DNA of 64,000 bases from Octopus vulgaris (Eukaryota). A program made the position numbers and the translations under genes. The notes under the pieces are model-generated. The model searched no databases. It was not told where the DNA came from and saw only the letters and a list, made by a program, of their open reading frames with translations. The stretch lies in the NCBI GenBank assembly GCA_951406725.2, contig OX597826.1, positions 55,552,001 to 55,616,000 on the forward strand, in the 5' to 3' direction. Shown here piece after piece: positions 4,231 through 60,768 of the stretch (the stretch's first letter is position 1; every line of letters starts with the position of its first letter).

Positions 4231-4602
4231 GGTAGGCGTGGTGTTTTATGTGTATGAATGTTTCTGTTATCATACATATATACATGTATATACTTATACA
4301 CAAGTTGATGTGTATATATATATATATACATATAAACTTATATGTATATATATATATGTATATAAATACACACACACACGTACATACTCACACATATACA
4401 TACATATATATGTGTGTATGTTTGTGTGTTTGTGTGTGTGTGTGTGTGTATGAACTCGCTGGCATTCTTTCTATCTACCTTTCAATCACACTACAAATGT
4501 TTTTTCCCGTCTGTTAAATAAAAGCTCTATGTTAAAATAGTTGTTTGATGTCAGCTCTGACAAATCTTTTTAGTATATTTGTTTGTATACTTATATATAC
4601 AT

Positions 4603-11862: not shown

Positions 11863-11959
11863 ATATTATCTTCGGTTGTACTTCTACTAAAATTGGAACA
11901 AGATTAGCAAGGCCTCTGCGCAAGGAAGATACGCAAATTTGTGAAACATTCCACATTTT
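11863..11959 (+). pseudogene. U6: U6 snRNA pseudogene lacking the ACAGAGA box
   Basis: CTTCGG...TACTAAAATTGGAAC[deletion]AAGATTAGCAAGGCCTCTGCGCAAGGAAGATACGCAAATTTGTGAAACATTCCACATTTT aligns to canonical U6 through its oligo-U end. Confidence 0.93.
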
Positions 11960-11985
11960 ATCTTTATGGTATGTAACAGGCAGAA

Positions 11986-12288
11986 TGTGGAGGCACATGG
12001 CCTAGTGGTTAGAGCAGCGGACTCGCGGTCGAGGGATCGCAGGTTCGAATCTCAGACCGATTGATGTGTGTGTTTATGAGCGAAACACCTAAGCTCCAGG
12101 CGGCGCCGGCAGAAAGTAATGGTGAACTTCTGCTGACTCTTTCGCCACAACTTTCTCTCACTCTTTCCTCCTGCATCTTGCACCTCACCTGCGACGGACC
12201 GGAGTCCCGTCCAGGTGGGGAACCTATACGCCAAGGAAAACGGGAAACCGGCCCTTATGAGCCAGGCATTGCTCGAGAAGAAGGAACA
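11986..12288 (+). mobile_element. SINE-D: tRNA head, non-CORE central domain, tail 1
   Basis: A box TGGCCTAGTGG, B box GGTTCGAATCT; central CACAACTTTCTCTCACTC shared with 31757-32082; tail GGCCCTTATGAGCCAGGCATTGCTCGAGAAG shared with 951-1454. Confidence 0.9.
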
Positions 12289-29983: not shown

Positions 29984-30148
29984 TACGACGGGCTTCTTTC
30001 AGTTTCCGTCTACCAAAGTCGCTCACAAGGCTTTGGTCGGCCCGAGGCTATAGTAGAAGATACTTACCCAAGGTGCCACGCAGTGGGACTGAACCCGGAA
30101 CCATGCGGTTGGTAGACAAGCTACTTACCACACAGCCACTCGTGCGCC
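29727..30148 (-). mobile_element. SINE-A full length
   Basis: Colinear with other copies. Confidence 0.95.
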
Positions 30149-30264: not shown

Positions 30265-30700
30265 TGAAAGCACGAGGCTTAGGGGTTAGGTTATCCGATT
30301 CACGATCGTAAGGTCGTGACTTCAATTCCCGGTTATCACGTTGTATCCCTAAGCAAGTCACTTTACTTCACGTTGCCTCAGTCCACTCAGCTGGCAAAAA
30401 TGAGTAGTACCTATTTCTTTATTACCCACGAGGGGCTACACAGAGAGGGGACAAACAAGGACAGACATAGGTATTAAGTCGATTACATCGACCCCAGTGC
30501 GTAACTGGTACTTAATTTATCGACCTCGAAAGGATGAAAGGCAAAGTCGACCTTGGCGGAATTTGAACACACAACGTAACGGCAGACGAAATACGGCTAC
30601 GCATTTCGCCCGGCGTGCTAACGTTTTTGCCAGCTCTCCGCAGGCTATACCGTTCATCGGATCAATTGGAATCCTCGTCGTCGTAAGTGACGGAGTACCA
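30265..30700 (+). mobile_element. SINE-C (CORE-like) with tail 2, interrupted by SINE-B
   Basis: Head and CORE-like part 30265-30410; resumes 30642-30700 with AGGCTATACCGTTCATCGGATCAA...CGTCGTAAGTGACGGAGT, the tail of the 31757 element. Confidence 0.75.
30411..30641 (-). mobile_element. SINE-B full length
   Basis: Reverse complement of 37911-38110 including tail ...GTGGGTAATAAAGAAATA. Confidence 0.92.
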
Positions 30701-55044: not shown

Positions 55045-55294
55045 ATTTTACATTATTTACATTATTTACAATTGACGGATTTTGTCCTCGTCTTGTTTGT
55101 TATTAACACAACACTACGGCTGATATACCCTTCAGCCTTCATCAGGTGTCTTGGGGAAATTTCGAACCTGGATTCTCATTCCTAAGGTATTTTTCGATGT
55201 TGTTATTGTTATTGTTATTATTATTCAGGTCACTGCCTGGAATCGAACTCGGAATTTTGAGGTTAGTAGCCCGCGCTCTTAACCACTACGCTAT
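55045..55294 (-). mobile_element. SINE-E: tRNA-headed short retroposon with internal minimal hammerhead fold and (TGTAAATAA)n tail
   Basis: A box TAGCGTAGTGG, B box AGTTCGATTCC; GACAC-CTGATGA-A-GGCTGA-loop-TCAGCC-GTAGT-GTT-GTGTT at 55150-55105; 9-mer tandem tail. Confidence 0.75.
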
Positions 55295-55431
55295 AAATTT
55301 TAGTTAATTTCAATTGGGAAAAAATTATTTGTAAAACGAGTAAATCTTAACATGAGCTCGGTCATGGAACGAATTAAACTCTTACTGCGATATCTCACTG
55401 TACTAGAGAGAAACATTTATCACGACAGTCT

Positions 55432-55770
55432 TAGCTAAGTGGTTAGAGCGTCGAGCTTACGATCGTGAGGTTGTGAGCTCGAATCCCGGACCGGGCTGCG
55501 TGTTGTGTTCTTGAGCAAGGCACTTTATTTCACGTTGCTCCAGTTCACTCAGCCGTAGAAATGAGTTGCGACGTCACTGGTGCCAAGCTGTATCGACCTT
55601 TGTCTTTCCCTTGGATAACACTAGTGGCATGGAGAGGGGAGGCTGGTATGCATGGGCGACTGCTGGTCTTTCATAAACAACCTTGCTCGGACTTGTGTCT
55701 AGGAGGGTAACTTTCTAGGTGCAATCCCATGGTCATTCATGACCGAAGGGGGTCTTTACCATTTACCCTT
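55432..55770 (+). mobile_element. SINE-C (CORE-like) with tail 3
   Basis: TAGCTAAGTGGTTAGAGCG...GCTCGAATCCC, CORE-like block, body reverse-complementary to 60435-60768. Confidence 0.92.
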
Positions 55771-56376
55771 ATTACTGTTATGCACACGGTAATACTACAG
55801 AGAATATAATGAAAGCCAATAGAGCCAATATTAAAGAGAAGATAGTAGAGTCAATCTTTATCCGGGCAATATCCTCAAAAACACCAGGGAATAAGATGGT
55901 ATCAACGGTGTCATCACAGCTATATCAACAAAAACACTACCGAGCAGAAAGTATTACTAACAATGTCATCGCAGCTATATCGATTATGTTGCGATTATAT
56001 AAAGGACAAATGGATTGGGTAATGAACTTCATTAACTAACAGCTGTTTCTGCTATAAGATGCCATGCGCTCATAGTTGAGTGTGTGTGTATCACCTTATC
56101 GCTTCGTCGGAACATGAGGTTATCAATATCGCTATGCGTAAGCGAAATGTTAAATTTCAACTATAATTTGACAGACATGACGGTCTCTGAGAGTGTCATC
56201 ATTACTATACTTATACTCAGTATATTACTACCGGAAAGACAGTTATCCTGACGCTGTTATGGCTGTTATGCACACTGTAATTTAGTATATATAAGTCACA
56301 GTATGTCTGTGTATAATGACTAATGCATACATTTCCACAATTCTCAACCGATTTTCACCACACTTTACACACACGA

Positions 56377-60434: not shown

Positions 60435-60768
60435 AACATCTTCGGTCAGGAATGACGATGGGATTGCATCTAGAAAGTCACCCTCCGAGGTACAAGTCCG
60501 GGTAAGGTTGTTTATGGAAGACCAGAAGTCGCCCATGCATACCAACTTTCCCTCTCTACGCCATTGATGTTATCCAAGGGAAAGGCAAAGGGGCCGATAC
60601 AACTTGGCACCAGTGACGTCGCAACTCATTTCTACAGCTGAGTAAACTGAAGCAAGGTGAAATAAAGTGTCTTGCTCAAGAACACAACACGCAGCCCAGT
60701 CCGGGATTCGAACTCACAACCTCACGGCCGTAAGTTCGACGCTCTAATCACTGAGCCATGCGTCTTCA
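60435..60768 (-). mobile_element. SINE-C (CORE-like) with tail 3
   Basis: Reverse complement of 55432-55770; A box TGGCTCAGTG, B box AGTTCGAATCC. Confidence 0.92.

Follow-up and report, generated by a model that had tools for sequence, protein, structure and literature searches.

The window (the whole stretch of 64,000 nucleotides of Octopus vulgaris DNA analyzed here) carries on its minus strand a short repeat copy in which a tRNA-like segment, here called the head, is followed by an AAT/AAC array, an ATG and a type I minimal hammerhead motif (Table 1). The original prediction had described this copy as a tRNA-promoter SINE containing a Penelope-type hammerhead ribozyme, and each part that it named, the A and B boxes, the AAT/AAC spacer and the pieces of the hammerhead, was confirmed on the minus strand where it had been placed, with the box assignment resting on the general box consensus. 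Its statement that the expected GAAAC reads GTAGT in this copy, three changes that leave the core broken, is likewise borne out. RNAfold recovered stems I and II (z -1.9, weak when taken alone). ARAGORN at default settings reported 0 tRNA in the 64-kb window, and relaxed settings returned noise. Neither a tRNA nor a hammerhead occurs among the matches that Rfam listed for the window (150 of 284), and a 291-base stretch of a typical family copy also gave no tRNA and no hammerhead match in Rfam; these blanks for both motifs indicate that Rfam is unable to judge such degenerate sequences. The 3' end of the copy falls in the upstream one of two 3'-end clusters of the family and lacks a tail of about 30 bp, and neither an inverted arm nor a TSD was detected at the copy. 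To judge from its sequence, the window copy is a degraded end fragment of an abundant protein-coding Penelope-like element (PLE), derived from the pLTR of that element.

Several other small-RNA-like sequences lie in the window. A different tRNA-headed SINE-like repeat occupies positions 55431-55780 (+), about 135 bp from the window copy and head to head with it. Further tRNA-like heads are found at 60702-60760 (-), 30277-30332 (+) and 30080-30122 (-), and another at 11995-12054, just after a U6 snRNA-like sequence at 11864-11960 (+) that scores 65.4 bits, above the Rfam gathering score, carries a 9-nt deletion and is probably a pseudogene.

Table 1. Features of the window copy (window coordinates) and pLTR blocks of the metagenome element L320.
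Feature	Position	Strand	Basis or remark
tRNA-like segment (head)	55233..55296	-	nhmmer, own-genome tRNA profile, E 2.3e-6; 5' end missing ~10 nt
A-box-like motif	55283..55293	-	sequence
B-box-like motif	55239..55250	-	sequence
(AAT/AAC)n array	55199..55225	-	length range among family copies 4-225 bp
ATG	55177..55179	-	PLE ORF start in coding copies; reading frame crosses hammerhead
Type I minimal hammerhead	55105..55150	-	5-bp stem I, CUGAUGA plus unpaired A, 6-bp stem II
Hammerhead GACAC (stem I strand)	55146-55150	-	sequence
Hammerhead CTGATGA	55139-55145	-	followed by unpaired A
Hammerhead stem II	55132-55137/55118-55123	-	sequence
GTAGT at GAAAC site	55113-55117	-	3 differences from GAAAC; followed by GTT
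Hammerhead GTGTT (stem I strand)	55105-55109	-	sequence
Predicted hammerhead cut site	between 55110 and 55109	-	
Post-hammerhead ORF codons	55046..55104	-	include 9-bp repeat (3 codons)
9-bp repeat	55050-55070	-	sequence
L320 pLTR blocks	1505-1760 and 4296-4551		exact 2,791-bp repeat (tandem or circular assembly)

The genome searched comprises 2.8 Gb in 227 contigs, in which the family query gave 4,313 first-look candidates, 40 of them scored. The supposition that the family behind this broken copy might carry an intact hammerhead core fared well: the majority of the 30 best copies reads GACAC-CTGATGA-A-stem II-GAAAC-GTT-GTGTT, and GAAAC after stem II is kept, together with a palindromic ACGU, both in those copies and in a genome-wide exact-core search. 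The exact gapped form of the intact core has 2,911 matches in the genome, against 0 for a reversed-pattern control, so the motif is more than a product of chance. At the GAAAC site of 29 other best-matching copies, 13 read GAAAC, 9 read GAAAT (CpG decay), 5 read otherwise and 2 were unparsed; across the core boxes, N7 is the sole frequent non-CpG variant. With CUGANGA, an extra base before stem II, G10.1-C11.1, GAAAC, a palindromic 15.2-16.2 and a short stem I, the predicted family structure is a complete minimal type I hammerhead as defined in the available text of PMC4209133. When two copies were cofolded, the minimum-energy structure was not the hammerhead dimer, a result that says little for a 4-bp helix.

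The head was recognized by a profile built from 8 tRNA genes of the same genome (E 2e-6), and it shows 38-47 identities over 74-79 columns to each of 10 tRNAs (a set without Asn, Tyr and some further isotypes), which singles out no isotype. Head and hammerhead go together, as the prediction required, in 24 of 30 loci selected by the head, and the remaining 6 stop within or right after the AAT array. In coding copies the head starts about 25 nt downstream of the ORF stop codon. The roughly 10 nt that precede it there (for example, in copy L064 near 2200-2230) form a near-perfect inverted copy of the first bases of the head, as if the tRNA-like segment itself came in through a Penelope-type fold-back.

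The idea of a separate SINE or retrozyme found no support in what lies upstream of the head, which in several copies is common coding sequence rather than flank. The order of the unit is ORF end, stop, about 25 nt, tRNA-like segment, AAT array, ATG, hammerhead and ORF start; the block of head, AAT repeat and hammerhead is thus read as the pLTR of a protein-coding PLE of about 2.7 kb. A query from the EN region gave 3,071 first-look candidates and one from the 5' region of the ORF gave 594. Among 30 fetched loci selected by the endonuclease region, with a query that ended at the head, 27 adjoin a pLTR match directly downstream (four loci are duplicates of one event). An RT domain is present (Pfam RVT_1, E 5.8e-8), and the majority frame built from 27 copies runs to 791 codons, with the RT motifs SLD, GLAMG and YVDD in a single ORF and, after the RT, a GIY-YIG-type region with the motif YSIPC..YKGET. 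Pfam gave no GIY-YIG endonuclease match for two natural fragments; the homolog P0015, 27% identical, bears PF01541. No CxxC occurs in the majority frame, unlike that of a Neptune-type control, and the family looks most like the Penelope/Poseidon clade, which is without the Cys linker. Its closest homologs are ENA proteins 54-69% identical, plus a cluster that contains barnacle proteins. Membership of the family among PLEs is near certain. A PDB sequence search gave nothing useful, and no relative turned up when viral and prokaryotic contigs were scanned. Searching the genome with the proteins P0005 and P0015 mainly recovered the octopus family itself, and the sole in-genome PLE control is one Neptune-type family.

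Individual copies fill in this arrangement. In L232 the block stands on either side of the ORF, a partial tandem, and the pLTR or partial-tandem arrangement is also found in L249 and L211. In L221 a frame stays open across the pLTR-ORF junction, from the ATG upstream of the hammerhead through the ribozyme and the 9-bp repeat, and a peptide of this type from the N-terminal end can be aligned to the start of homolog P0005 (43/90 identical, E 5e-18); the supposed tail is therefore the coding start of the ORF. The prediction had taken it for a terminal simple repeat, and here it gives way: the repeat is in frame, and other copies extend beyond the block on both sides.

Three observations concern particular copies and neighboring families. 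A copy at G000:C13:28571000-28578500 (minus strand; L250) starts at the head, extends 180 bp into the ORF and is among the few short copies that might act as template. The Neptune-type PLE family (L311-L318, for example G000:C3:36468000-36474500) appears young and possibly active, its copies being about 95-97% identical, with RT-EN frames that are intact over 617-898 codons and long ends rich in CA/TA. The AAT array often takes up insertions of other elements; other retroelements lie inside it and split copies L041, L048, L070, L076, L077 and L087, consistent with an (AAT)n-targeting element; an apparent second head in L041 and L048 was rejected, the DNA upstream being another retroelement that ends at the AAT array.

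The suggestion of Penelope-type mobilization is upheld by the insertions themselves. Our sample was the first 100 arms with an exact core listed for contig C1, picked regardless of their ends; they yield 94 bounded insertions, of which 52 have an inverted arm; within these 52, the tail of about 30 bp is present on one arm only in 38, on neither in 14 and on both in 0. A stricter count gives inverted arms for 39/100, against 6 in a control. Measured from the ATG, 3' ends fall at +120-129 in 44/100 arms and at +150-169 in 45/100, two clusters about 30 nt apart, and while 1/100 carries on into the ORF, 99/100 end by about +170. Flank repeats of at least 8 bp accompany 25/94 insertions, compared with 2.4% of shuffled pairs. 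A direct head-to-tail repeat was seen, by eye, at 1 of 60 loci. This signature agrees with the PLE features given in the available text of PMC8557442, and the two clusters match the two internal RT start sites that the accessible part of PMC11167929 describes for Poseidon_Ac.

Are the thousands of short copies, then, a lineage of their own? We classified 128 pLTR instances as long (28), short (81) or other (19). Non-CpG divergence is 4.5% for long and 4.2% for short copies, and none of 16 polymorphic sites differs between the classes after correction (lowest P 0.017); a haplotype-linkage regular expression matched just 22 copies, 2 of them long. Since all but one of the 100 arms stop by about +170 and alleles are common to both classes, we take the short copies to be by-products, mostly of the coding element's transcripts and not of their own lineage, with the caution due to a small sample, in which a minor lineage made up of short copies alone may have gone unseen. 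The competing view, in which short copies are transcribed by Pol III, recopied in trans and form a true Penelope-dependent SINE, can point to short head-start copies that exceed read-through copies several-fold, to A and B boxes that short copies retain, with no TTTT in their aligned majority, and to the one nominal difference, an allele in 15/65 short and 0/21 long copies (P 0.017 uncorrected). That difference does not outlast 16 tests, however, and the short set includes copies chosen for likeness to the window copy, which itself bears the allele in question; the equal divergence of the two classes also weighs against a separate lineage. As far as the available text of PMC11167929 goes, the RNA template of Poseidon_Ac requires the first 172 nt of the ORF, past its priming sites, whereas nearly all sampled arms end by about +170. 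We consider such a SINE quite unlikely. In SINEBase terms, the head is a short tRNA-derived one with A and B boxes, but the family shows no non-autonomous lineage with a head absent from its partner, no LINE partner and no simple-repeat 3' tail. What stands of the original description is the tRNA-like head with its boxes and the Penelope-type hammerhead; the free-standing SINE is not supported, as the head belongs to a coding PLE, short and coding copies have alleles in common, and the tail is coding.

Far less probable still is a non-LTR retrozyme-like unit that self-cleaves out of tandem arrays and spreads through circular RNA. Thousands of copies with an intact minimal hammerhead would suit it, as would the proposal, in the literature as available here, that retrozymes originate from PLE pLTRs, and the combination of Pol III promoter and hammerhead in a Schistosoma element (PMC6765202, available text). 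The octopus copies, however, are solitary or inverted, tandem units being confined to the one direct repeat in 60 loci, and their ends lie between +120 and +169 or at the head rather than at the cut site (+70).

The by-product reading makes the 5' ends of the copies informative. For 100 arms, 22 ends lie between the array and the core, 32 in the AAT array (a class inflated by the 5'-end classifier, which assigns some head-bearing copies there), 9 within the head and 28 at positions 0-13 of the head, while the other 9 arms extend further upstream. Put otherwise, of the 37 copies extending as far as the tRNA start, 28 terminate no more than 14 nt from it, against 9 of 46 that stop at head positions 14-55. 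The per-base rate of stopping is about 12-fold higher at the head start than inside the head, with a binomial P of 3e-25 that assumes independence, an assumption that the arms do not fully satisfy. Across the genome, a 21-mer that spans the upstream junction of the head, and contains an unprotected CpG position, has 473 exact matches, against 3,286 for one just inside the head. That most head-reaching copies start at the head suggests that RNA polymerase III probably transcribes the element, and the simplest reading of the pile-up is an RNA whose 5' end lies where the tRNA-like segment begins.

At a probability of about 0.55, we favor a model in which transcription is initiated by a tRNA-type Pol III promoter that the element has captured, and internal priming near the Penelope 5' end gives the SINE-like copies. 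Transcription would start about 0-6 nt ahead of the tRNA-like +1 in the upstream pLTR and then enter the ORF. The RT/GIY-YIG protein of the element would nick AT-rich DNA, and the RT would prime internally at two sites about 125 and 155 nt past the ATG, in the manner seen for Poseidon_Ac in vitro. From the first pLTR-ORF junction, such priming would copy only about 250-290 nt back to the RNA 5' end and leave SINE-looking copies, and from a downstream junction it would yield coding copies. Short copies without ORF sequence past the priming site would, on the basis of one in vitro system, be dead on arrival. Cleavage by the hammerhead would be weak, in a dimer or with the aid of protein, and insertion would not depend on it; in the available text of PMC11167929, the Poseidon_Ac hammerhead cleaves only with protein, and insertion does not require cleavage.

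Two further lines of evidence bear on the polymerase. The sense strand of the majority ORF contains 0 TTTT runs where three shuffles lead one to expect 2.7, 3.1 and 4.1 (P 0.04, for synonymous shuffling, 0.026 and 0.014), whereas eight copies of a Neptune-type PLE from this genome hold 5-7 each, at or above expectation. Few T runs are also seen in A-rich fragments of another retroelement, with 1-3 TTTT per 1.2-1.4 kb. Among 25 metagenome relatives, 9 have open frames of at least 250 codons; six of these hold 6-28 TTTT runs, and two short ones hold 0 (1.3 expected). The depletion is a modest signal, suggestive only. RNA-seq reads (3 raw runs from one study, under a related label) were placed on one coding copy, where they number thousands, in equal orientations, with no pile-ups of ends and a depth step at the head of just two-fold; their joints mirror genomic inversions. 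The pattern fits copies lying within host transcripts, uninformative as to Pol III use or cleavage. Counted against a Pol III transcript is the translation of uncapped RNA that it would entail.

The pile-up could instead come from cDNA fold-back at a palindrome just before the head, the tRNA-like segment being no more than the passive remnant of a tRNA or SINE once inserted into the pLTR, and the element being transcribed by Pol II or by read-through. A hairpin of -9.6 kcal/mol does lie across the head start, and inspection by eye puts fold-back junctions at it in about 13 of the 28 copies that start at the head (a script flagged 7), so structure may contribute part of the 5'-end peak. The RNA-seq data, with no start pile-up, suit this view, and the D. 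virilis Penelope is reported in the available text of PMC2377424 with a LINE-like TATA-less internal promoter. Yet about 15 of the 28, again by eye, are not fold-backs at the palindrome and join flank or other fragments, and fold-backs past the outer arm of the hairpin are rare (2 of the first 100 listed junction matches). Inverted arms in long insertions stop at the head start in 6/14 cases (manual de-duplication) and go past the hairpin in 8/14, compared with 9/37 overall (Fisher P 0.045, with 17 rows reclassified manually). A passive relic also leaves the absence of TTTT from the ORF standing against it. We judge this account unlikely, and continue with the captured promoter.

One PLE outside the octopus family, L320 on metagenome contig JGI1357J11328_10009043, is 42% (RT) and 32% (EN) identical to family fragments. 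After the stop, each of its pLTRs has an A-box/B-box segment ending in CCA, an AAT repeat and a minimal hammerhead crossed by the ORF. The box pattern, composed after the L320 sequence had been viewed, occurs in 0/12 other metagenome relatives scanned and in 0/2,000 shuffles. The segment matches the tRNA profile at only E 0.28, Rfam gave no match for L320, and its ORF has 2 TTTT runs (4.1 expected), which speaks against strict read-through there. L320 may be regarded as a lead for recurrence of the same layout. A fuller version of our model, in which Pol III would make the whole RNA of about 2.7 kb of an autonomous coding element from a captured pLTR tRNA gene, with an ORF purged of T runs, thousands of SINE-like copies shed from its own 5' end, and a design arisen more than once in PLEs, is put forward tentatively, as a doubtful but possible extension. 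If true, it would provide a direct path from PLE to SINE-like repeats.

The general view is that autonomous retrotransposons rely on Pol II and that Pol III promoters are limited to short non-coding parasites (PMC10886601 and PMC3531059, available text). A tRNA-type promoter would be out of the ordinary in a protein-coding transposon, and a coding PLE driven by one would, if true, break this split and raise the questions of how uncapped RNA is translated and whether a hammerhead overlapping the ORF start has a role in this. For annotation, the by-product reading carries a warning: thousands of apparent tRNA SINEs in the octopus genome would be pLTR by-products. With internal priming, short copies could map PLE transcription starts using DNA alone.

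Reportedly, tRNA-derived SINEs of octopus were described by Ohshima and Okada in 1994. These SINEs and the 190 Penelope-like consensus families of PMC13282606 possibly come from the same kind of host, and the present family may already stand unnamed in such libraries. No PLE with a tRNA or Pol III promoter was found in the literature searched, and subscription papers, Repbase or Dfam may hold the family; the available portions of PMC7229834, PMC13282606, PMC6685494, PMC3531059, bioRxiv 2026.07.22.740005 and PMC2377424 describe no PLE with a tRNA-type promoter. Hammerheads in pLTRs and truncated or inverted stubs are already known for PLEs, as are, elsewhere, Pol III promoters in TRIM terminal repeats and a promoter plus hammerhead in a Schistosoma repeat, so far as these sources were available. 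What would be new, at odds slightly above even, is a coding PLE with a tRNA-type promoter in its pLTR.

The metazoan PLE hammerheads of PMC4209133, as its available text describes them, have in common with the octopus family CUGANGA with an unpaired base, G10.1-C11.1, a 6-bp stem II, a 5-bp stem I and a palindromic ACGU, and likewise occur mostly as solitary copies with some opposite-strand pairs; the octopus family differs in promoter context and in its predicted GUU cut triplet. Poseidon_Ac of Anolis carolinensis, in the Penelope/Poseidon clade (PMC11167929, available text), also has a single ORF with RT and C-terminal EN, pLTRs, a hammerhead that overlaps the ORF start, and a tail of about 30 bp defined by its two internal RT start sites. 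The octopus family is unlike it in the tRNA-like segment, none being described for Poseidon_Ac in that text, in an ATG upstream of the entire core, and in 5' ends heaped at the tRNA start. The TRIMp3 elements Cassandra, Helenus and Ajax (PMC10886601, available text) similarly captured a small-RNA-derived Pol III promoter within a terminal repeat, but they are short non-autonomous LTR elements whose autonomous partners are expected to use Pol II, whereas the octopus repeat sits in a coding PLE. In the Schistosoma Sm-alpha SINE-like repeat (PMC6765202, available text), a Pol III-type promoter likewise lies upstream of a type I hammerhead, with an upstream unit driving the downstream one; Sm-alpha consists of non-coding tandem repeats, whereas in octopus a minimal hammerhead lies inside a coding PLE that leaves insertions with inverted arms.
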